Below are positions 28,086 to 48,668 of a stretch of DNA of 64,000 bases, piece after piece. The stretch covers positions 4,154,001-4,218,000 of the forward strand of contig NW_024704746.1 of NCBI RefSeq assembly GCF_018977255.1, written 5' to 3'. The notes under the pieces are model-generated. The model ran no database searches. It worked only from the letters and a program-made list of their open reading frames with translations, and was not told the origin of the DNA. Position numbers and translations under genes: made by a program. Numbering within the stretch: position 1 is the first letter of the stretch; each line of letters starts with the position of its first letter. The DNA is from Callorhinchus milii (lineage: Eukaryota).

Positions 28086-31000
28086 ATGGAGTCGGCACCG
28101 GGAGGACGGCTGGTCAGCAAGGTCCGGGCCTGGGGGAGCGGGGGGGAGACCGAGCCCGGGGGAGGGGAGGGGAGGGGGGGGGGGAGAGAGAGACCGAGGC
28201 CCCCGGGCCTAGGGTTAGGCCCCGCGGTGAGGCCTCGGGTGCGGGTGACCAGGTGCTGCTGAGCGGCTGAAGCTCTCCCACTGACGCCCTCTCGTCCCTG
28301 TCCGCAGGTGCTGAGCTGGAGGGCAGCGGCTGCCATCGCCTGGTCTGTGCTGCTGCTGCCTCTCTCCACCTTCTCCTTCATCTTCCTGAGCCGCATCAGC
28401 CTCCTGCACCCCGTCCAGTGGGCAACAGGTAATCATAGTGATCATCATACAATAATAATAATAATAATAATCCTTTGAGACGTCTCAAAGCGCTTCGCAG
28501 AATAGACCGCAAAGCGTAGTGACTGTATGGTTTGCGGGCGAAATGCGGCAGCCGATTACATACAGCGGTGTCCCACAAACAGCCGTAGATTGAAGGACCG
28601 ACCACATTTTTAGAGGGATTATTGATTACCCCCCCGGAGAAGTGATCCGCCAATCAACTGACGACTGGGTCCTGTTTACTGCCGGGGTAAACAGCGCCAT
28701 GTGGAGTAAGGGAACTTGCCTAAGGTTTCGCGCTGCCCGGGAATCGAACCCGTGTCTTCTCGCTTGCGGAGCGAGTGCTCCAACCGCTAAGATACAGGAC
28801 TTCACGAAGGGGTAATCATACTTGTATTTGATATGGCGCCGTATAATGTCGAGGTGTCTCAAAACGCTTCACAAAGTAACAGGTGATTGACTTACTTAAT
28901 ACAGACGTGCATGTTTAATATAACACAGCGCCGAAAACCGAAACGTCTCTGAGCGCCTCCCGGCGAATTGCTGGCGGGTTAGTGATCGTATCTGTAGACA
29001 AATGCAGCTGTCAGTTTGTGCACACAAAATATGGCACGAGCGAGGGGTTTAATCTGTGGGATTGTCGGTCAGCACACAACAAGAGAAAAACTTGCTTGTT
29101 CTTTTGTGGAATCTTTTTAACATCTGTCTGAAAAGGCACAGAGGGGACCATGCGAGAGAGCGAGAGACTGAGCCAGGCTGACGTCTGATGGTGATGCGAT
29201 GCTAGGATTAATGTGCTCCTGGCTGTGGTTTCCCCCTTACAGACTCGCTGCAAGAAATGTACAATTCGTACACTGCCTTCTCCCTGCTGGTGCTGGCTGG
29301 CATCGTGGTGACCATCGGCACTTTCAACACCGAGTTTTACACTGGTAACGTTACCGTCAGCGCTCAGGGTTCATCCTGGTCCGGTCAGACCTTCATGGTG
29401 ATTGTGTGTGTGTCTGTGTGAAGGGTGGGGAAGTTGTGAGAGGGATTGTGTGTATGTATGTATGCAATGGGATTCCCCCCCCCCCCCCCACCCCGGGTCA
29501 TGCTGTAATGCTGTCTCTCTCTGTCTCTGCAGTTGAGCCTTCCATCCCGTGCAGTCGGATTGCGCTGCTGGGGAGCGTGTTCCACCCACAGCGGTTACTA
29601 CATTCGGTGGTGCACGCGGCGCTGGGTGTGCTGACTGCGTGGTGCACCACTGTGCTCGTCGGTGGCCGCTACCACCTCATGAGTGCCCCTTCCTCACAGG
29701 ACAGGTGAGGCTAGCACCGTCCCGGCCATGGGGGGAGCCTGACACCCTGGCTGGAGTACAAGCGGTGTGTGTGTGTAATGTGCGCACATGTGTGTGTATA
29801 CATGGTGCTTCTATGTGTGTGTATACACGGTGTGTGTATGTCTGTGATTGTGTGTGTGGATGCGATGTGCTTGTGTATGTGGTTTGCCTCGAGATGTGGG
29901 GGGTGTATGCAGTGTGCCTGTGTGTGTATACACGTGTATATGTGTGTGGTGTGTGTACATAGTGTGTGTGTGGTGTGAGTAAGCGGTGTGCTGATACGTG
30001 CACTGTGGTGGTCGTTCTGTTCCAGTGTTGGAGTGGAGGGCCTGTACTTGAACGAGTTTCACGTTTTCCTGCTGGTGGGGGGTGCGTTCTTCGGCTACAG
30101 TTACAGTCTCCGATACTTCATCAACAACATGAATTACTTGTCATTCCCAGCAATCCAGGTAAGGGTTTGGGGGGAAGCAGTCAGGATTTGTTACCTCCTC
30201 ATAGAGACCCAGTGATCCTACCCATGTGGCTGTATACTCGCTGTCTTGTCACAGTTGGCGTGTCCTGAAGTGAAGGATGTTATACAAATATAATCTATTG
30301 TTGTTGTTGAGTCCTATAGCTCAGTGGTTAGAGCACTTGTCTCACAAGTGAGAGGACCTGGGTTCGATTCCCTGGCAGGGCGAAACATTGTGCAAGTTTC
30401 CTCACTCCACACGCCTCTGTTTACCTAGCAGTAAGTAGAAACCCGGTTATTAGTCGATTGGCAGATCGCTTTTCTGGAGGTAATCCTTCAAAAAAAAAAA
30501 AATTTGGTCACTCAACCCACAACAACAACAAGATTCCATTTATAGAGCGCCTTTCACGTCGGGAGGATGTCCCAAGGCGCTGTACAGTTGGGTCAGGACC
30601 CGAGCAGTGGGGAAATGGTTAGGGTGAGGGGAAGGAAGGGAGGGAGCGAGGAGGGGGTAGAGAGTCGAGAGGGGAGCTGAAGGCACGGTCGAAGAGAAAG
30701 GTCTTGAGACCGGCCTTGAAGGAGGAAAGGGAGGAGGCGGCGAAGGCACTGGGGGATAGAGTTCCAGAGCCTCGGGGCTGAGAGGCTGAAGGCCCGGCCA
30801 CCGATGGTAGGGCGGTTGGGGCGGGGGATGTGGAGCAGACCGGAGCCAGAGGAACGGAGGGTAGGGGGATAGTAGGTCAGAGAGGTAGGAGGGAGCGAGG
30901 ATGTGAATGGCCTTGTAGGTGAGGATGAGGATCTTGATTTCGAATCGGTTGTTTGTGGGACACTGTTGTGCGCAATTGGCTGCTGCGTTTCGCCCACAAA

Positions 31001-34000
31001 ATAAACAGTCAATTCTCTTTACAGTATCTCCTGTGGAGCGCTTTGAGACGTCTCAAAGACATGATAAGGCGCTATATCAGACGCAAGGATTATTATTATT
31101 AATCAGCAGCCACCTGCTTGAGCTCTGGGCTACAGGCTGGTGTCTTCAGAGGTGATTATTATCAAAACCCGTCTCATTCAGCCCATGTTCTGTTTTTCCA
31201 GCAATTCAAGTACCTGCGTTTCAAGGCCAGCCTGTGGCTCGTGGTGAAGTACAGCGCTGTGCAGTCCTTCTACTTCCTTCGCAACTACTGCCTCCTTTAC
31301 TACTTTCTAGGTAACTTGTCACAATCCCAAACCTCTCCTTACCTCAAGGGCGTGACTGCCGTTCAGGCCACTGCAGACTAACACTGACCGAGGCCCCTTC
31401 ACAGCGGCTTAACCTCGCCCGTCTGGGGAAGCTTGTCGGTTTAGAGTTGAGAGAGAGAGAGAGCGCACTGGACACTGTGCAGAGAGATACATACAGTGCA
31501 GGGAGACTGACAGGTGTGTGTGTGTGTGATTCTCACTGTAGAGATTGTAGAAATGGGATTAGAGGACTTCGGAAGGAATATCGTGCGGATTGTGTGTGGT
31601 GGGGAGATGAGGGAGGGTATGTGTGGATTATTGAACATACTGATTCAGACTGCCTGTTTCCCTCAGTCTAACATGGCGGTGGTGGGGGGGGTGTGGTGGG
31701 GCTGGTTCAGTGCTAAACACTGACTGCCTGTGTTCTATTCTGCAGGTTACGTTCCTCGAGCCTGGATAAGCGCCTCAATGTCTCTCCAGAAAGACAGGTG
31801 AGTCAGAGCCGCTGCCCTGGTGTCTGACACCGTGTCTGCGGGACTCGGCCTATGGGTGTGGAGGCCCACTGTGACCTATTCCCTCACGTCTGCACAAACA
31901 TCCCAATTCCCCCCACCTCCCCCCCCATGCCTCGGTCCCCAAATCCCCTGCCCCAATCCCCCTCGCCCCCCCCCCCCCCAAATCCCCTCTACTCTCCAAA
32001 TCCCCCCACACCTCAAATTCTCCTGAACCACTGCTTGGCGGGACTCAGACCAGGAAGTGTTGGGATTGGGGTACGGTGGGGATCTAGCTGGTTCTGGGAT
32101 CGACATGTGGTGGTTTGGGGGGGCTGGAGGTGGGGAGAGGGGTATGTTGTGGCGGGGATTGATGGGGGGACCTTGAGCTGAATGCCGCTGCCATGGGCAG
32201 GTGGCCTGTGTCACTGTTTCAGTGTCTCCCCGCAGTTCGGTACCAGCGCTTGACACACTGAGTGGCCTCTTGGACCCTCCTCTCCTGTACGTGGCCTGGC
32301 TGAGCGGCACCTTCCTCCTCCTCACCTGGTACCTCACCTGGCTGCTCTTCAAGATCTTCATCACTGAGGTCAGACCCCAGGGGTGTGGGTGGGAGCAGGA
32401 GGCTGGGGGAGAGCTGCTGGAGAGGGGGATGCAATGAGAAAGTTAAACCTAGATCTATTCTCCCAGAAAAGCTGAGGCAAGCGGAGCAGAAAGTGAAGGG
32501 TGAGGGTGGCTGGGTTCAGGCCGGACACCAGGAAGTATTTCTGAGGGAACTGATGCCTTTGACGGGGTTCCCAGGGTCGGTGGTTGTGGCTGGACTCTGG
32601 AGTGTGTTGAAGCTGGTGGAGTGGATATTGTGGAGGGGGTGAGCGGCTGTGGCTGAGCCCCTCTGACCTCACTGCTCCCTGCAGGTTTACCAGTTCCCGG
32701 TACAGTTGCCTTTCGGTGAGGACGCCGATCGATGTCTTCCTCGAGTCCTGACGTCCAAAGTGTCACCACTTGTGAAGGTGAGTGACCAAGGGTCAGCTTT
32801 CATCCCAGGCACGTGTGTATGTGTGTGGGCAGCGTGGAGTGTATATGTGGGCGCCGCATGTGAGGCATGTGTGTGTGTGGGCATCGTGGGGGTATGTAAC
32901 GCTTTCTCTTCTCTCCAGTGTCTGGCTCTGCAGGACCTGGCATTACTGTCCCAGTATTCCCCGTGCCGGAGGCAGGAGGTCTTCAGCCTGAGCCAGCCAG
33001 GTACACACAGGGGGCAGGGGGGATGGACTTGGGAGGAGCTTGGCAAGGGAGGGGATTATAGGGTTGTGTGTGCGTGTGTGGGGTGGAGGTTGGTACAGAG
33101 TGTGTGTTTGTGCTGAAGGCTTTGCCAGGCAATGGGGAGCTGCTATGACTGATCCCTGCCTCTCTGGTGCCCGCAGGAGGACACCCTCACCACTGGACGG
33201 CCATCTCTAGCGAGTGCCTGGCGCTGCTCCGGGACCTGACACACACACTAACGGCCTATCAGGAGGTGGCGGCCGGCAATGGCAGAGTGAAGGCTGTACC
33301 ACTCACCGCAGAGAAACGGGCCCTGGGCAGCAGCGCAGGTCAGATTCTGCCCCCCCCCCCCTCCTTCCCCCCACGCGGTAACCTATTCCCAGTACAGGCA
33401 GCACTGCCCACACCTGGCCATGTTACACCCAGATATTGTTTACAGTCATTACATACTGTGAGAAGCGACAGGCAGATTGAGGTACCGTTTGTCTCAGCGG
33501 TCAGACAGGCCTAACCCTGACCTGGGAGTGTGGACGGACAGTGTAGAAGGAGCTTTACTGTGTCTCCCACCCTGACCTGGGAGTGTGGACGGACAGTCAC
33601 TCTGTGCTGCCACTGATCTGGGAGTGTGCAGCTCATGTCCTCTCCCGCACCAGGCTCCTGAGCCTATCACCCCCATCTTGCCTGGTTTCACTTGCTCCCC
33701 ATCCCCCAGAGGATTGAGTTCAACATCTTCTTCCTCCATTTTAATTCCCTCCACAACCTTGCCCTTCCTGTCTGTGATGTTTTGCAACCCTGCCGAAATA
33801 CATTTTACAGTATATTCTGTGAAGCGCTTTAAGACGTCTCAATGATGTACTAAATCCCTTTTTCAAATTCAAGGATTATTATTTAGTATAACCCACACTC
33901 CCTCCACTCAGCAGTCATCGGCCTGCTTCACGTCCCCCACCATTAACAGTCAGGCCCTCAGCCTTCTTGTCCTCATACTCATACTGTCCCTATGTCTTGC

Positions 34001-37000
34001 CCCTTTCCTCACCTTGTTCAAGTTCCATCTCAAGACCTCTTTGTCTTTCCCCCACAACCCCCCACCACTCTTGGAACTCACCCCTCCTGCATCTAACCTC
34101 CAGCTTGGGAGGGAAGTCCAGACTGCCTTGAGATGTCCTCCCGACATGAGCACTATGTGAGTGGAGTTTGTTGTTGGACAGTGAGATCACGTATTGTTTG
34201 TGTCACAGAGGCCTTGGGCTACAATGAGGCAGCCAGTTACCAGCCTGCGCTCCGCACCTCCCACCTTTCTCACACGCCCCGCAGCTCGCCGCTGTTCAAG
34301 TCCTCCAACTCCTCAGTGCGGAGCCTGCTCAGCTTCCCCTTCACCCCCGACTTGAGCAGCCCCTTCGTCTCGCCTATGGCCCCCCAGCAGGGCGAGGCCC
34401 TGGACATGGCCTCCCCATGCTACGGGTCGTTGCAGAGCCCCCACGTCATGAGGAGGGGGCCCAAACTCTGGACATCAGCTTCTCGAGCCTCTGGTAAGTG
34501 GTCTGTATGTGTGTGTGTGGGTGGGGGGAGGGCTCAGAACACCAAACTAACGTTAGTGACTGTGTAGACAACAGTAAGATCCCACATACTCCTCTGAAGT
34601 GAGCAAATTTCTCTGGGATTGTCAGTCAGTTTCCCCCGGTGACACACACTCCCTGCTCTAGCTCCCCCACTGTAACATGGCCTGAAGGACATTGTTGCGC
34701 TAGGGTTACAAAGGGCAATATCATCAGAGGGTGATCAGCGACTGGTGTAGGCTGCCAGGGAGGAGATGGCTGGAAGCTGTGATGGTGGGGGTTGTGGAGG
34801 CTGACGAAGGGATGAGATCAAATGGGCCAATGGGTTCTAACATAGAAACAGGAGTAGGCCATTGAGCCCCTCGAGCCTGTTCCGCCATGCTATAAGATCA
34901 TGGCTGATCTGCACCTCAACTCCAATTACCCGCTTTTGCCCCCTGATACACTTGATACTTGATATCCGGACCTAACAAGTATCTATCCACCTTAGGCTTG
35001 ACAATGTGAATGGATTCAGCATCCACAGTGTTTTGGAGGAGAGAGTTCCAGATTCCCACTCCCCTTTGGGTGAAAAACTGCCCCTGGATTTCACTCCTAA
35101 ATGGCCTGGCTCTAATTTTAAGATGATGCCCCCCCTTGTTCTGGTTGCCTGGCACTGGTCTGTGAACAAGTTGTTGTTGGGTGTCTGGGGGAGTGTGTCC
35201 TGTGTCCCGTTTCCCCCTCTTCCCCCCCACACCGACATAGGCTTGATGTTGTGCTGTCTCTGGCAGGGTGCATTCCCACCGCTGAGGACTATCTGGTTCC
35301 AGTCAGCTGCCCGACCCCCGAGACAGTGCGCCCCAGCGGCCTCTCCCACTGGCTACTTCACCGTCAGGAACAGGTACTGAGGCGCACGAAGCGCGCAACA
35401 CGTGAAGTGGATTAGCCAGGGCTGTGGATTGCGTGGGCAAGAGTGTGCGCGGCGAATTGTAAAGAGGGCAGAGGGTAGCGGGACTAGTTGAGAACGGTGA
35501 ACAGATCACGCTTTCCACTTTTCCCTGCGTTCCCCATCCTCGGGTTTTTCCCATGAAAGTGACTGGATTAAGAGTTGCCTGAAGGGGACTATTGACGGCA
35601 GGGAGTGGGACTGATGGACAGCAGCTCGCCCTGAGAGCTCGAGTGGTCTCCCGCCAGTGCACCCCCAGTCTGCACAATCAACCCTCCCTCCCCGTCCCCC
35701 CATCCTCTATTCACTATCCGTCAGACTCCCGCGATTCCTCACAGTCTCTGTTTGAAAATTTAAACGAAACTGGGATTCCGGATAATTATAATCTGCTCTG
35801 TGTACATCTCTTTCCCCGTTTGCGGAGTCTTGCTTGTCTGTGGCAGTCAGGCTGTAGGCAGGCGGAATCGAGGGGTTTGGGTGGGGGGAGCGACGAGGGC
35901 GGAAGATGTGTCTGAGACGAGTGTGGGGTGGGGGGGTATTGGGGGAGGGATTGGAACAAGCCCCTCTGTCTGAGGCTGTGAGGCTTGGCTGTGATCGTGA
36001 AGCCAGTACTGAGTGTGATTAACCTGGGCCGGATGGTGTTTGCTCATCAGGTGAAAGTTTTCTTGTCGCGCCGAGTGCCGGTGGTGTATTTGTTTCATAA
36101 GGTAAGAGCCAGGCCTCGTGCCAGCCCAGCCCGGCACGCTGCAGCTTCCCCTGCATGCCTGCACGTCTGCAGCTCGCTCTCTGCTCTCTTGTCTGGCCCG
36201 TCTGTCTACCATCTGCAACTCCAGTCAGGGCTCGCAAGTGGCTAATTCTGCTTCTATTAGTGGCTTGGAATAGAATCTAGAGAAAACTCATGGAGTATAT
36301 CTTCATAAACTGCTCTCCATTGTGTCTGTGCTAGTGCTCGCTCCCCGACAGGAGCTCTCTACTTCCCTGCTCTTTCCCTATAATGTTTAATATTCTACCT
36401 GGAGTATTTATCCAATTCCTGTTTAAACACTTTGTGTTGAGGTGAAACATTTCATGTTGTGTTCTTCGTGCTGTCAATCTCTCCGCTGCCCTGATTGTCC
36501 GTGCGTAAAGTAAAAACCCACTCGTTTTATTTCTCTGCAGCTTCCAGAGGCTTCAAGTCAGGCTGTGTTTGCCAACAGCCAGATACACATCTGGGCGCTG
36601 GAAGGTAACGTCTGCTTAATATCTGGGGCTATAAACTGGGGGCGGAGGTTCACACAGAGGGCAACCGCTGCTCCGCACTATTATTGATCTCAGCCAGGGG
36701 ACAGCCTGTCTCAGTGCTGGCAGATTAGGGCACGCTCTTGCTCAGTAACCATGGACTCAGCTCTGGAGTATGTGTGTGTGGGTGGGTGGGCGCGGGGAGC
36801 TTGGAGGGGACAGGCTGGGGGCTGATGGCTTCAGTGCAGGGCAGACAGTGCGCACAGAGACAGATACAGACCGGACGGAGCTCACGTTTAGCTTTTCGAA
36901 TCTTTATTGGATCCAACAAAACAAGATTAAAATCATTTCTTACAACTTCACATTAAGGGGAGGTGTTTACATTTTATCCTGGCTGATTTTATCGGGGTAT

Positions 37001-37977
37001 TTATACCCGCCCGCCCGGGTGTTTTGTGCGGTGTGTGGCTAATACTGGGTATTTATGCCCACCCACCGGCTATTTTTGCTGTGTGTCGCCATCGCTGTGT
37101 GTTTTTGTGCTGTGTGTTTGTAACACTGGGTGTTTATAGCTCCCCGTCTGGGTGTTTTGGGCTGTGTGTGGCTAATGCGGTTGCTTTCCCTGCCCACAGG
37201 CCTGTCCCACCTGACAGCAGCATCCTTCACAGAGGACAGGTATGGAGTGGTGCAGACCACACTGGCCTCCATTCTCAGTGTCCTGCTCTCCCTTCAGGAG
37301 GTGAGTCACAGATGCTGAATTGGACGGCGGCGTGTGCATGGGGCGCAAGGTGTGCTGTGTGTGTGTGCACGGGGGGGGCGGTGTCAGTGAGGTAAGCACA
37401 TGTGGGGGGAGGGGCGTGTATAGTGTGTGTGTGCAGTGGGGGTACACAGTGACGCGTGAGGCAGGGGCCCCTGGTTTTGGGCACCGGTGGTGAGCGAGGC
37501 ACTCGCGGCTGTGATAAGCCCAGTGTTGGGGTGTGGTGCCTCTCACGGGAGCATCTGTGTGCGATTGACAGGCTGTGGACAAACACTTCAAGCTGCCGCA
37601 CGCGTGCAGTCGGCCTGCGAGGGCCAGCGGGAGCCTGGCCGACTCCTCCTACAGGACGCTGCGCTTCGCCCTGCGCTCCGCCCTCAAGACTTCCATCTAC
37701 AGGATCACCAGCACCTTCGGGGAGCACCTCGGGTAAGTGACAGCACACAGACCCACCCATTGGGGTCTCTGTCCCGCTCCCAACCCGGGCTCTGCCTGCC
37801 CCGTCCCCAACCTGGGCTCTCCCTGCTGTTAAATTCCCAGGAGCTGCGTACATTGCCGATGTCCACCCTTCCCACCCCGGTGCTGTGTTGACTCTGTGCT
37901 GTGTCTCCCGCAGGGCGGTCCAGGTCTCAGGGGAGCACAGGAAGCGTCTCCAGCAGTTCCTGACCTACAAGGTGTGA
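28086..37977 (+). CDS. NDC1: Transmembrane nucleoporin NDC1 (TMEM48), 18 coding exons, intact
   Basis: Exons: 28086-28121, 28308-28428, 29243-29344, 29533-29704, 30026-30158, 31202-31310, 31746-31797, 32236-32368, 32685-32777, 32919-33000, 33177-33338, 34209-34493, 35267-35373, 36051-36101, 36541-36604, 37200-37300, 37572-37732, 37914-37977. All GT-AG and in phase. Peptides such as [68 protein letters not shown] and [12 protein letters not shown] match NDC1. Exon 1 is uncertain (alternative 27986-28066). Confidence 0.95.
28453..28802 (-). mobile_element. tRNA-derived SINE in NDC1 intron 2
   Basis: Family head, core and tail on the reverse strand. Confidence 0.8.
30309..31100 (+). mobile_element. 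SINE split by an antisense L2 3' fragment (about 30520-30945)
   Basis: SINE head 30309-30520 and core plus tail 30945-31100 flank sequence closely matching the 16683-17170 L2 end. Confidence 0.85.
34838..35150 (-). mobile_element. CR1 LINE 3' end
   Basis: [27 protein letters not shown] plus the CR1 3' UTR motif. Confidence 0.8.
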
Positions 37978-38183
37978 GCCTTCCGTGAAGTGTTCCTGTG
38001 GTTTGCTCATTCCTGATTCAGCCCCCGAGTTCCGTGGGGTTCGTGCCTTCACTACAGCCCGGTGCTGGGTCGGCAGGCAGTCAAGACAGACGGACACGTG
38101 TTCCCGTGCCGCGCTGCGCTGCTCTGTGTCACCTCTGTCCGGACGGAGCCGGTGGGAGTCAGATGTTTTATCGACTGTTTATA

Positions 38184-38189
38184 AATAAA
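38184..38189 (+). terminator. AATAAA poly(A) signal of NDC1
   Basis: About 210 nt after the stop, followed by a GT-rich tract. Confidence 0.7.
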
Positions 38190-38458
38190 GGTGCTGCTGT
38201 GTGTTTTAACAGCTCCCTCGCTGCCACATCATCATCGTTATTATTAATTTCAGCCTCGGATTTGAGTGCTTCCCCCCCCCCCCTCGGTTATCCCGTCCCA
38301 TAAACGTGGGGAGACGCACGGTGGAAGCAGATTCTTTCCAAGAGCAAACAAGATAAATTTCTGCTGGAAAATAATATCTGGGGATACAGTGGGGATACAC
38401 GACATGTCAAGTGACTGTCAGGACAGTGGTTTTCTTTCACCAGCAAATTCCTCTGCTG

Positions 38459-39184
38459 TCACCGTCTCGTTGTTTCTCCCTGGCGAGACTCTGGCGGTGC
38501 AGCAGTCGCCCCCAGGAGGAGCCTGCGGTGCAGTGGGCGGTTGGTGGGGGCGAGGGGATGGGTCTGCGTGCTCTTGTGTGCCGTGTGGTTGCGCTGGTGG
38601 AAGGCGGCCTGCCGGAGCAGCTGGTTCAGGGTGAGCAGGTGGTCCCGCTGGCTCCGCACCTCCTACCACAGCCTCAGGCAGCGCTCCTGCTCCTCGCTCA
38701 CGCTCTACAGCTCGTCCCTCGCCGCCTGCAGCTGCTCCTGTAATGCCTGCCTGGCGCTGGCCACCTCTGCCAGATCCCGGCTCAGAGCCCTCATCCGCTC
38801 GCTGCACCGGCCGTTCTCCTCCTGCAGGATCCAACACTGCACGGCTCGCTCCTGTAGCTCCTTCAAAGCCTCCCTCGCCGCTCTGTTCCCCAGCCCAGGC
38901 TCTCTGCCCGCCCTCGCCCTCAGGCCGGCCTCAGGCTCCAGCCCAGGTCGCAGTTTGCTCAGCACCAGGTTCAGCTCCTTGTTCTCAGCGTTCACGTACT
39001 TCAGTTTGTCCCTCAGTTCTCGGAGCTGGGTCCTGCTGACCGTCTCCACCACCTTCAGTCTCTCCCTCAGTGCCTCCTCCCTGACGCATGCCTCGTCACG
39101 CTCCTTCCTCACCTTCTGCACCACTTTCTTGGCCTCTGACTTTGTGCCGGTGTTTTTCTGGGCTTGTCTCTTGGGGGTGGACAT
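38459..39184 (-). pseudogene. Intronless uncharacterised coiled-coil protein gene (241 codons) interrupted by two in-frame TAG codons
   Basis: ATG at 39184 (MSTPKRQAQKNTGTKSEAKKVVQKVRKERDEACVREEALRERL...). E/R/K/L/Q-rich heptad-like sequence with GC-ending codons. TAG at 38707-38705 and 38665-38663; the same frame continues (SVSEEQERCLRLW*EVRSQRDHLLTLNQLLRQ..HKSTQT..) to TGA at 38461-38459. The uninterrupted part is 159 aa. Confidence 0.65.
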
Positions 39185-39396
39185 GCTGGGACCTGGCTCC
39201 GGGGGAGAACAGCCAACAATGAGGGCAGATCTCACACCAACTCCTCAATGTCAAACTGTAATCAGAACATTTACAGTGAAGGAGCTCTGTACTGCTCTCT
39301 ACCCCATTCTCTGCTCTCTCCCCATCGTGTATGTGCTGGTGCTCACTCCCCACTGGAGCTCTCTAATCTAACCCCATTCCCTGCTCTCCCCATCAT

Positions 39397-39619
39397 GTCT
39401 ACGTTTCCCAATGGCTGAGTCTCCTGCTGTTATTTATTGGGTGGCTCACACAGGGTCATTTGTGGAACCGCTCCTAGTGACAGCTGGTGTGTGTGTGCGT
39501 ATTAGGACCTCCGAATGGCGGTCGCTGCTGGGGGTGGGATTTGGCTGATGCTCAGCTCCGTGCATTTACACACATTTTGCAGCCAGAATTCAATCCGGAT
39601 CCTCTGAATCTTTCAGTAG
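39397..39619 (-). repeat. Left arm of a ~220-bp inverted duplication
   Basis: Reverse complement aligns by eye to 41788-42010 with scattered substitutions. Confidence 0.9.
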
Positions 39620-39940
39620 CTCCCCCACTGGAGCTCTGTGCTCTAATCCCATTCCCTGCTCTCTCCCAGTTCCCTTAACTATATATACAATCCCCTCCTA
39701 GTCAAACAGTTACAGACTCCAACAACAACAACAACTTGTATTTATTGGGCCCTTCACACAGGGCAGTGACTCAAGAGCGCTGCCTGATGGAATCCTGTGA
39801 TAAAACATTACAGGTTCTGACAGCTGGTTGGTGCAAGGCGAGTGCTGTGTTAGTTTGCGTGGGCGAGTCTCAGGTCTGGGGTTCGCTTGGGATAAAACTT
39901 GGGGTGTATATTATTAGAGAATTGGATACTGGATATTGTG

Positions 39941-40241
39941 GAGTCCTGCAGCTCAGTGGTTAGAGCACTCGCTTTGCAAGCGAGAGACCTGAGTTCAATT
40001 CCCGGCAGAGGGTGAAACCTTGGGCAAGTTTCCTTATTCCGTACGCCTGATAATAATCCCTCAAAAAAAATAATACATTGGTCATTTCAATCCACGACTC
40101 TTTGTGGGACGCTGCTGTGTGCAATTGGCTGCCGCATTTCGCCCACAAATATACAGTCAAATCACTTGACAGTCTATTCTGTGAAGTGCTTTGAGACGTC
40201 GAGAAGACGTGAAAAGCGCTATATCAAATGCAAGGATTATT
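39941..40241 (+). mobile_element. tRNA-derived SINE, short form
   Basis: A and B boxes, core and tail present. Confidence 0.85.
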
Positions 40242-41787
40242 ATATATATTTAAAGGAACTTGGGATGAAATGTGAGAAGAACCCTTAGTGACAAACAGCA
40301 ACCTTTTTACACTATTTAACTGAATAATTGAAAAGAGGGTTAATTTTGGCTGCTTAATATCAGTTTCAGCCTGGCACTCTTGCCTCTGTCAGAAGGTTGT
40401 GGATTCAAGTCTCATTTCCAGTGTGTTCACAGTCTCGGCTGTACTCCAACACAAAGCTGTATTGTCAGATTCACTGCTGGGCAAATTGGCTGCTGCTTTT
40501 GCCTCCAAAACAGTCACTAAAACTCTGTGAAGCACTTTGAGACGCCTTGACCCGATGAGGCATTGCAGTGAAGGATTACTTAGTAAATAAAGGGACAGAC
40601 AGGCACTGGAGGAGGTAATATGGGTATAAATCTTACAGATAATTGTAAAATATTAACGTCAGTGTTGGTTAGAGAGCAGCCGTACTCAGCTCATGCTGTT
40701 AACCCCTCCCACCATTTAGAAGTCATTGTTTTCCACAAGAAAATATTTGGATATATTTTTCTGATTCTCAAGATCCAAATTTAACCCTCGCTTTTGATGC
40801 ATTCCCAACAACGTCAAAACATCTCGGAGCTTTTGAGTTTCCTGCCGAGCAGAAGAAACAAAGCGGCACAAAGTGAGTTTGCCCCCGGCTCCGTCACTCA
40901 ACATTTGCCCAGGCTCTCGTTACTGAGGTACGCTGAGAAAAACAATAATAATCCTTGCGTTTGATATAGCGCATTATTGTGTCATTCAGACGTCTCAAAT
41001 CGCCTCACAGAGTTTTAGTGACTGTTTTGGAGGTAAAAGCAGCAGCCAACTTGCCCAGCAAAGGGAGTTGACTATGTATTTTGTGGGCAAACGTGACAGC
41101 CAACAGCGATGGTCGCAGCAAGTGAGCTTCAATGGACAACAAAAAAACACTGAAGTGCATCAGACACCAGCACGTGAGACACCAGTGTCTGCACAGCAAC
41201 TCCAACCCACTACCTCAACCCCCCCCCCCCACCGCCACCACACACACACACACACACACACAATGTAATTAACATTTCTGTAGTGCTTTCAAGTCGGAGG
41301 CGCGGTGCTCTCCCTTACCCCCACCCTCCTCCAGTATGTCACTCCCACATTCGGACCGTGATCTATCGCTGATCCAGTCCAGCAAACCACCACCGCCTGG
41401 GATCACCAGGCAAATCGAAGGAAACTGGAAACAGGAAAACTGAGAGTATTGGAAGCTACAGATGGCAGCTGTATTAAAGAACCCGGGATTTTCCCAGGAT
41501 TGCGGGACAGGACCACCCTGCCCTATACCCCCTCCTCCTTGGAATAGACTCCCCCACAGTCACACTTAAGGATTGGCAGATTGATGGCTATATGCTATGT
41601 GTCTTGTTCCTGGAGTAATATTCCCAGATTGGGGAGTCTGGGAGTTTGACTGGGTTTGGGGTCTGGGGGGAACGCGGCGATGAGTACCTGGTCAGAGCGG
41701 CCGGTGCAGGTGCGACGCGAGAGCCAGCGAAGCTGTGAGTCAATGGAAACATCGGCACAGATCGGTGTCGCAAAATCAACCAGGAAA

Positions 41788-42010
41788 CTACTGAAAGATT
41801 CAGAGGATCCAGATTGAATTCCGGCTGCAAAATGTGTGTAAATGCACGGAGCTGAGCATCAGCCAAATACCACCCTCAGCAGCGACCGCCATTCAGAGGT
41901 CCTAATACGCGCACACACACCAGCTGTCACTGGGGACGGTTCCACAAATGACCCCGTGTGAGCCACACAATAAACGGCAACAGGAGATTCAGCCATTGGG
42001 AAACGCAGAC
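41788..42010 (+). repeat. Right arm of the ~220-bp inverted duplication
   Basis: ctactgaaagattcagaggatcc...agccattgggaaacgcagac. Confidence 0.9.
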
Positions 42011-43319
42011 CACAACCTCACAAGCAGCCTCCAAAAGCACCCCCCCACCCCACTCTGTCTGTCCGTCTCCCCTCCCCCAGCCACTGAGCCAAACTCTGGG
42101 GGGAGCAGACGCACCTCATCGACTTATAATAATCCATACACAGCGCATTTCACGTTGGGAGAACATCTTAAAGCTCTTTGCAGGATACACTCTAAAGTAT
42201 AGTGACTGTATGTTGTAGTTTGAACCAAACAACAAAAAAATTACATTTGTTAAGTGACTTTCACATTGGGAGGACGTCCCAAGCCACTGGATAGTCATGG
42301 ATTTGGACCCGAGCTAGGGGTTGGGATCAGGACGGGTTAAGGGTAGGGAGGGTGTTGGTCAGATGGTGACCGAAGGCACAGTCGAAGAGGAGGGTCTTGA
42401 GATTTGCCTTGGAGGAGGCAAGGGAACGTAGCAGGCGATTTGCACACAGCTCCATCCCACCAACGGCCTTGAAGTGAAGGAATGATTTTATCCGGGAGAT
42501 TGTTAATCAGGACACCAGGAGAGATTCTTTTTGAATAATGTCATGGGATCTTTAACATGCACCTGAACAGGAGCTTATGGACACACACACACATACACAG
42601 GAGTAAATGTGATCAGTCCTGCAGTAACATTCCACACAAACAACTCACACGTCATAACCCAACTTAATTTAATTTATAATGCTCTAACACAAGGCGAGAA
42701 AAAGCTGTGAAAAATCACTATACAAAGAAAGTTTTGAAATTTTGCTAATGTACAGATTTGAGGAAATCTTTCAAGTAACGTTGGCGATTGGGTTGTCAGG
42801 AGGATCAAGGCTGAAATCAAACAGTGAAGGTAAAAAGTGAAAATATCATCCAGAAGCCGCCCGGGAACTACAGCCCAATCACACCCGATCACTCCCGCTC
42901 ACACCCGATCACTCCCGCTCACACCCGACCATTGCCAGTCACTGCCAGCCCATAGGCCTGAGCTCCATCATCAAACTCTTCCGTCCACACTTCCGTTCCC
43001 CCTCACGGCCTTCACCAGGAACCGAGCCAGCAACGATGGAGCCTGCGGAAACCCACACACAGGTCACAGCCTCGTCAGACAGACAGACGGAATGCTTCAC
43101 ACCGAAACTGAGAGTCAAGGCCGCACTCAGGGATACAGAGCTTTCACATCGGGACGACCGGGACATCTTGAAGCGCTTCAAACTGTAAACCAGAGTGACT
43201 GTTTTGTGAGTAAAGGCGGCAGACTATTTGCCTCCAGCAAAGTGCTGAGGGGGAGGGGACGGTGCCAGAGTTTTCATGGGGATCAGGATCTGGTTGGGAA
43301 TTGCTCGCTCACCTGTAGC

Positions 43320-48668
<5,349 letters not shown>

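Follow-up and report, generated by a model that had tools for sequence, protein, structure and literature searches.

A segregating stop codon in the single zgc:113691 orthologue of Callorhinchus milii, between NDC1 and YIPF1

Between NDC1 and YIPF1 of Callorhinchus milii lies a minus-strand frame that is interrupted by two in-frame TAG codons. This raises the question of whether the locus is a gene in the course of being lost, a gene that makes a shorter protein, a gene whose stops are recoded, or an intact gene with errors in its assembly. We analysed it within a window, by which we mean the whole stretch of 64,000 nucleotides (contig NW_024704746.1, forward-strand positions 4,154,001 to 4,218,000), and all coordinates are positions in this window. 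The frame (hereafter the ORF) runs from the ATG at 39184 to a TGA at 38461-38459; the TAGs, codon 160 (38707-38705) and codon 174 (38665-38663), are its sole interruptions, as the first-pass annotation had described. The coding-like composition reported there also holds, since GC3 is 0.81 upstream of the first TAG and 0.85 downstream, both values lying between the extremes (0.66 and 0.91) of eight exon pieces nearby.

38459..39184, minus strand: coding frame of the zgc:113691 orthologue, single exon, 241 codons in the open allele
38708..39184, minus strand: protein of 159 aa encoded by the stop allele, present in public sets as P0002

The 992-Mb genome holds one copy of the ORF, whether DNA, its own protein or a shark orthologue is the query; the sole match of the horn shark orthologue is this locus (42% identity over residues 3-222, E = 8.9e-40), and the match contains the two TAGs. 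A phmmer search over 1.84 billion representative proteins with the 241-aa read-through, put forward as a query in the first-pass annotation, returned 10 matches, namely the ORF itself and nine others (E <= 2e-5, 30-38% identity). Eight of the nine extend past both stops and the ninth is a 129-aa fragment; judged from these alignments, the similarity exceeds chance. The matches are labelled zgc:113691 or uncharacterised and come from coelacanth, axolotl, zebra shark, bichir, sturgeon and teleosts. A first profile search gave 189 matches, the best 120 of them teleost or unnamed, and a second gave 15, comprising 12 sharks and rays, sturgeon, lungfish and Xenopus. By its sequence, the ORF is orthologous to zgc:113691, a coiled-coil gene that is still uncharacterised, and the family, as traced by these homologues, ranges over sharks, rays, ray-finned fish, coelacanth, lungfish and amphibians. 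The name is that of the zebrafish gene and is carried by orthologues in teleosts, bichir, coelacanth, sawfish, catshark and stingray. Thus the "extra" gene of the earlier description is indeed a distinct gene between NDC1 and YIPF1, but not a new one. No amniote, lamprey or invertebrate homologue stood among the matches listed (the best 120 of 189, the 15 of the second profile and those of phmmer), in searches of limited sensitivity, phmmer having overlooked the frog and lungfish orthologues; a loss in amniotes is only suggested.

Other searches were less productive. A word-based protein search returned the ORF alone, its relatives coming with the HMMER search; Pfam gave no family above the cut-off for the ORF or for the first zgc:113691 member shown, with scattered weak coiled-coil matches, and a PDB sequence search gave weak coiled-coil matches only. 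With the lungfish orthologue as query, the ESM Atlas returned generic coiled coils, and the kinship of the top match, a Spindly-like protein with 141 of 256 shared features, was not accepted. Many orthologue records carry unrelated automatic names, such as CwlO-like, CENP-E, INCENP, paramyosin, cingulin-like, Rad50, BRE1A and CCDC68 (P0004, P0042, P0065, P0085, P0143, P0144, P0146, P0151, P0152, P0154, P0155 and P0162), so that the family is hidden in databases. By gene name, no relevant paper on zgc:113691 was found in main texts; supplements, including gene lists, lie outside that search and may mention it.

In a 23-row tree the ORF groups with 12 elasmobranchs (support 100/99) and stands outside them, as expected of a cartilaginous fish outside sharks and rays; its branch is long, and the tool cautions on its placement. 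The gene tree agrees with the species tree, along with the single copy in the genome. The ORF shares with the family the two-helix layout, the ERDxA and K-x-[TVI]-QT motifs and the YIPF1/NDC1 neighbourhood. It differs from the family in its long branch, an 8-residue insertion near 88-96, its nonsense alleles and a shorter, divergent tail, with 20% identity to elasmobranchs beyond residue 205. We also considered a third, old stop, as the frame past the TGA (KEN...CRVSP) looks like shark tails by eye; this was rejected, the frame not being in the top 12 of 3,549 targets of an 18-tail profile.

The position beside YIPF1 and NDC1 is conserved, to judge indirectly from two outside species. A mis-fused bichir gene model (P0013) gives the order HSPB11-YIPF1-zgc:113691-NDC1 in one direction, and a mis-fused goodeid model (P0010) joins zgc:113691 to NDC1. 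Their pieces map to the window as follows:

57-58 kb, minus strand: HSPB11 (bichir model)
43-48 kb, minus strand: YIPF1 (bichir model)
29-38 kb (29500-38237), plus strand: NDC1 (bichir and goodeid models)
37570..38237, plus strand: last two exons and 3' UTR of NDC1, with AATAAA at 38184, convergent with the ORF

The order is kept, whereas NDC1 is opposed to the ORF and YIPF1 here and runs in the same direction as they do in the two models. This layout points to a local inversion of NDC1 in this lineage, with a breakpoint within about 220 nt of the ORF stop; the inversion is probably real, because two contigs of the public run X1 (37782-38380 and 38362-38859) overlap across the gap between NDC1 and the ORF. 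Between the ORF and the 3' end of YIPF1 lie an inverted duplication of 223 nt, 92% identical (39397-39619 and 41788-42010), which could pair within a transcript spanning YIPF1 to the ORF, and a high-copy repeat of about 300 nt (39936-40243), of which the window contains over 20 copies, 69-88% identical.

Alleles were read from the assembly and from seven of the 24 listed runs (X1-X7), all under a single species label. Six runs (X1-X6), from two studies, cover the stop codons; X7 spans neither, and X4 and X6 may be one animal. Contig depth is 3-7 and contigs drop or mix alleles, so the readings are alleles, not genotypes or frequencies.

38705..38707, minus strand: codon 160, segregating nonsense allele; TAG in the assembly, X4, X6 and (inferred) X2, CAG in X1, X3 and X5
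38663..38665, minus strand: codon 174, private allele or assembly error; TAG in the assembly only, CAG in six of six covering runs
38489..38490, no strand assigned: deletion of 2 nt in codon 232, carried by X2 and X4, which both have TAG at codon 160 (inferred for X2)

At codon 160, TAG is thus read in four of seven sequences and CAG (38707 A>G) in three, while at codon 174 CAG (38665 A>G) is read in each of X1, X2, X3, X4, X5 and X6. X3 carries the whole frame in one contig, with six substitutions, CAG at both codons, no gap and no stop. X4 and X6 retain the codon 160 TAG in contigs that extend at least 69 letters across it, and all of their differences (5/5 and 1/1) lie elsewhere. X2 is taken to carry this TAG as well, since 38707 was not listed among its differences though weaker rows were, 7 of the 9 being visible; if so, both codon 160 alleles occur within one study. 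Open and loss-of-function alleles therefore both exist in the species, as far as the shared label of the runs defines it, and CAG is the open codon. The earlier proposal of CAG>TAG twice, in a null allele or recently inactivated gene, is borne out in that other runs read CAG at both codons. As for its two stops, the first recurs beyond the assembly and the second is private to it, either as a real allele or as an assembly error, the latter being in our judgement the less probable of the two. The codon 174 TAG and the codon 232 deletion occur only alongside the first stop. The 159-aa public annotation is one allele, not the full protein.

The 14 substitutions comprise 4 synonymous changes, 8 missense changes and 2 stops, and the 4 synonymous compare with 3.4 expected under neutrality (P = 0.46), a sample of little power with which purifying selection remains compatible. 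Mean pairwise difference is about 1% among five DNA-like sequences. This variation fits relaxed selection, with the little power noted. On the longer time scale, the end branch of the ORF measures 1.4 against 0.36-0.6 from the same fork to the elasmobranch tips (with no neighbour gene as rate control). Of 32 columns conserved at 90% among 22 orthologues, the ORF retains 22, and elasmobranchs retain 27/35 to 33/33 near-invariant columns, partly by construction. The composition of the ORF is the most GC-shifted of the 23 rows (GARP 0.30, FYMINK 0.12), and the long branch, judging by these residues, owes partly to a GC-driven shift.

Two of the runs, X4 and X6, are RNA because their contigs connect 37731 to 37913 across an NDC1 intron, a classification taken from these spliced contigs and not from the run records. 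Over the ORF, at low depth, X4 has contigs at 38438-38885 and 38906-39260, and X6 at 38638-38832 and 38958-39244; both runs read TAG at codon 160. The X7 contig covers 39006-39230 only, with 15 letters past its end. NDC1 RNA contigs terminate at 38237 and 38227, beyond the AATAAA. The RNA gaps (38238-38309 and the NDC1 introns) are stretches where contigs give no cover and are uninformative by themselves.

The intact protein may be considered from its predicted structure. An AlphaFold model built from the 23-row alignment has a mean pLDDT of 80 and a pTM of 0.39, and its main elements map as follows:

38939..39148, minus strand: first long helix, residues 13-82, with the ERDxA signature of the family (AlphaFold and alignment)
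38573..38887, minus strand: second long helix (approximately residues 100-204), which the codon 160 stop truncates (AlphaFold)
38561..38575, minus strand: K204-S-T-Q207-T208, predicted LC8/DYNLL-binding motif at the boundary of helix and disorder

The pLDDT is 88-98 for residues 101-200, 52 at 201-210 and below 50 beyond, with the helix drawn to residue 204; breaks at residues 160 and 174 coincide with the X placeholders. The model agrees with the earlier remark that the helical pattern continues across both stops. Q207 and T208 are invariant in 23/23 rows and are the only invariant residues after L172. The core [KR]x[TVI]Q[TV] is present in 147 of 157 homologue records compared with 5.4% of shuffles, in a set dominated by related teleosts, and short motifs can arise by chance in single proteins; the 10 records missing it still carry QT at the same place. 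Six records (the ORF twice, two fusions, a fragment and an unrelated 43-mer) are excluded from this count. The motif is also present in sharks, coelacanth, lungfish and amphibians.

According to the relevant passages of PMC3078936, the LC8/DYNLL motif is [D/S]-K-X-[T/V/I]-Q-[T/V]-[D/E], with the natural consensus DKSTQTD, and such motifs sit in disordered segments beside coiled coils. The ORF matches the core from -3 to +1, whereas its positions -4 and +2 are H and not D/S and D/E. Its K-x-T-Q-T directly follows a long coiled coil, in a segment of low confidence that is likely disordered, a setting shared with LC8/DYNLL clients such as lebercilin (LCA5; PMC9481538). Unlike such clients, the ORF has a single motif and its binding is predicted only; no sequence homology between it and LCA5 emerged, the Pfam search placing it in no family. 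The genome encodes its own DYNLL genes. When the motif region was modelled in complex with a stand-in for LC8, which matches the genome's own LC8 at 83 of 85 compared residues, the score was 0.02; with alignments unused and controls not folded, this is no evidence either way. Considering the motif and the model together, it is somewhat likely that the intact protein is a two-helix coiled coil whose K-x-T-Q-T binds the LC8/DYNLL dimer; two chains would in this way be held to each other by the dimer, as happens with other LC8 clients. The block around the ORF belongs to a cluster of glis1/3, rfx3, ndc1, hspb11 and lrrc42 that has been described as ciliogenic (PMC6984359), and zgc:113691 is absent from that description in the passages concerned. 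By analogy with lebercilin and from this cluster, a ciliary or centrosomal role might be guessed at, doubtful as such a guess is.

It is also possible that the ORF is reached by splicing from YIPF1, as two features on the minus strand would allow:

39185..39257, minus strand: acceptor-like TTACAG/TTTGA, exon start at 39255, 71-nt leader without ATG, start context AGCATGT
43308..43421, minus strand: YIPF1 stop-codon exon with the donor GCTACAG/GTGAG (43312), a putative upstream exon of the ORF transcript

In an X4 contig of 369 letters, numbered in its own direction as other records bear out, letters 15-369 align to 38906-39260 and the 14 letters beyond 39260 are unaligned, while the DNA-like contigs of X1 and X2 cross 39260 without a gap. 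The YIPF1 stop exon and the intron end at the ORF acceptor share exactly five letters, where the X4 fit stops; the five-letter match is found at 1 of 54 GTRAG donors and 4 of 1,569 GT sites upstream. The chances appear evenly balanced that YIPF1 is spliced to the ORF on the sense strand, which would put the ATG 78 nt after the YIPF1 stop; the hint is a single X4 contig of depth 5, whose overhang falls short of that expected from a clean branch. Tandem genes are commonly joined by splicing at trace level. A conserved bicistronic role for YIPF1 and the ORF seems improbable. We give as little credence to a joint reading, in which zgc:113691 would be the second cistron of YIPF1 through an alternative last exon, its intact ORF 78 nt behind the YIPF1 stop; the product would be an LC8-clamped coiled coil of the GLIS1-NDC1-HSPB11 ciliary cluster, lost in amniotes, with a second independent loss segregating here. 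If true, it would offer natural knock-outs of an unstudied gene. No relevant paper on YIPF1 with a bicistronic or readthrough transcript was found in main texts, supplements being outside that search.

Some further observations concern the same interval. The YIPF1 stop codon lies 7 nt ahead of the splice donor (exon 43313-43421, minus strand), so the last exon of YIPF1 is non-coding. Within the window the 11-mer TTACAGTTTGA has just two occurrences (39251-39261 and 43178-43188, minus strand), at the ORF acceptor and at the likely acceptor of the YIPF1 last exon; there is no wider similarity, and it is possibly a duplicated acceptor. RNA-like contigs of X6 and X7, from two studies, end within 1 nt of each other at 39244-39245, where DNA-like contigs continue; this is the second AG, 60 nt before the ATG, and may be a start site or a second acceptor.

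How, then, should the stops be read? The first-pass annotation had raised ADAR recoding of UAG to Trp, with convergent NDC1 read-through as a dsRNA partner. Such A-to-I change, or read-through, would restore the full protein, and the convergent NDC1 layout and the helix continuing past the stops would suit it; both are explained by orthology. A recoded stop would be fixed in DNA, altered in RNA, and set in a conserved Trp or read-through context, none of which is seen here. The alleles are DNA polymorphisms, with CAG in DNA-like runs; the RNA contigs of X4 and X6, which would mask low-level editing, contain no T>C at 38706 or 38664; and Trp occurs at codon 160 or 174 in 0 of 22 aligned orthologues, codon 160 being K/R in 18 of them and Q in 4, and codon 174 being E in 20 and Q in 2. 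The proposed dsRNA partner fares no better, as the main NDC1 contig terminates some 220 nt before reaching the ORF stop. Recoding is thus extremely unlikely. That both stops are assembly errors in an intact gene is very unlikely too: the absence of the codon 174 TAG from all six covering runs (0/6) would fit, but the codon 160 TAG is bridged by the contigs of X4 and X6, and by inference in X2.

Alternatively, the gene may have kept its function, in which case the 159-aa form would be an allele that is tolerated or balanced, acting for instance as a coiled coil that is dominant-negative or independent of LC8. The truncated product proposed earlier is indeed in public protein sets as P0002; as a tolerated functional form it is the lesser reading, and we hold it to be rather unlikely. 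In its favour, stop-allele RNA is present, conservation is highest in the N-terminal helix (residues 14-80, with a mean identity of 0.44 to orthologues), and the first stop occurs on two or more clearly distinct backgrounds, the assembly and X2/X4 being 7 listed sites and a deletion apart, so that this stop is old or recurrent; contig mosaics, however, can mimic diverse backgrounds. Against it, 6 of the 8 SNPs upstream of the stop are missense, no aligned orthologue is shorter than 215 aa, and the stop deletes the sole invariant QT, within the K204-STQT motif, together with the conserved L172 and R180. We consider it quite probable instead that the species' only zgc:113691 copy is a polymorphic pseudogene on its way to loss. 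The codon 160 stop would remove the last 45 helix residues and the motif, likely leaving a null or hypomorph, and weak selection in the lineage would let later lesions (TAG 174 and the 2-nt deletion at 232) accumulate behind it. With its coding part in a single exon, the mRNA of the stop allele would largely escape junction-dependent decay, and the presence of this allele in RNA runs fits this. In the open allele KSTQT is still perfect and the homology stays in frame, which speaks for selection until recently, or still. As described in parts of PMC11576641, polymorphic pseudogenes likewise have coding and loss-of-function alleles together in one species; many human ones belong to redundant multigene families, whereas the ORF has no paralogue in its genome.

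As a type of finding this is nothing unusual, namely a fast-evolving gene with a nonsense polymorphism, and it cautions against taking the 159-aa reference annotation for the protein. The polymorphic pseudogene as a kind was already known, as was zgc:113691 as a named, unstudied gene; what is new is the series of alleles, the prediction that the family binds LC8, and the hint of a splice from YIPF1. If conserved, the YIPF1 splice would be an unrecognised bicistronic or conjoined mRNA and would carry greater weight. LC8 binding through the invariant QT offers a first testable function for the zgc:113691 family. This family has been kept for roughly the whole of jawed-vertebrate history, and a single-copy member with a common stop allele may provide natural knock-outs and allow the loss of a gene to be observed as it happens.
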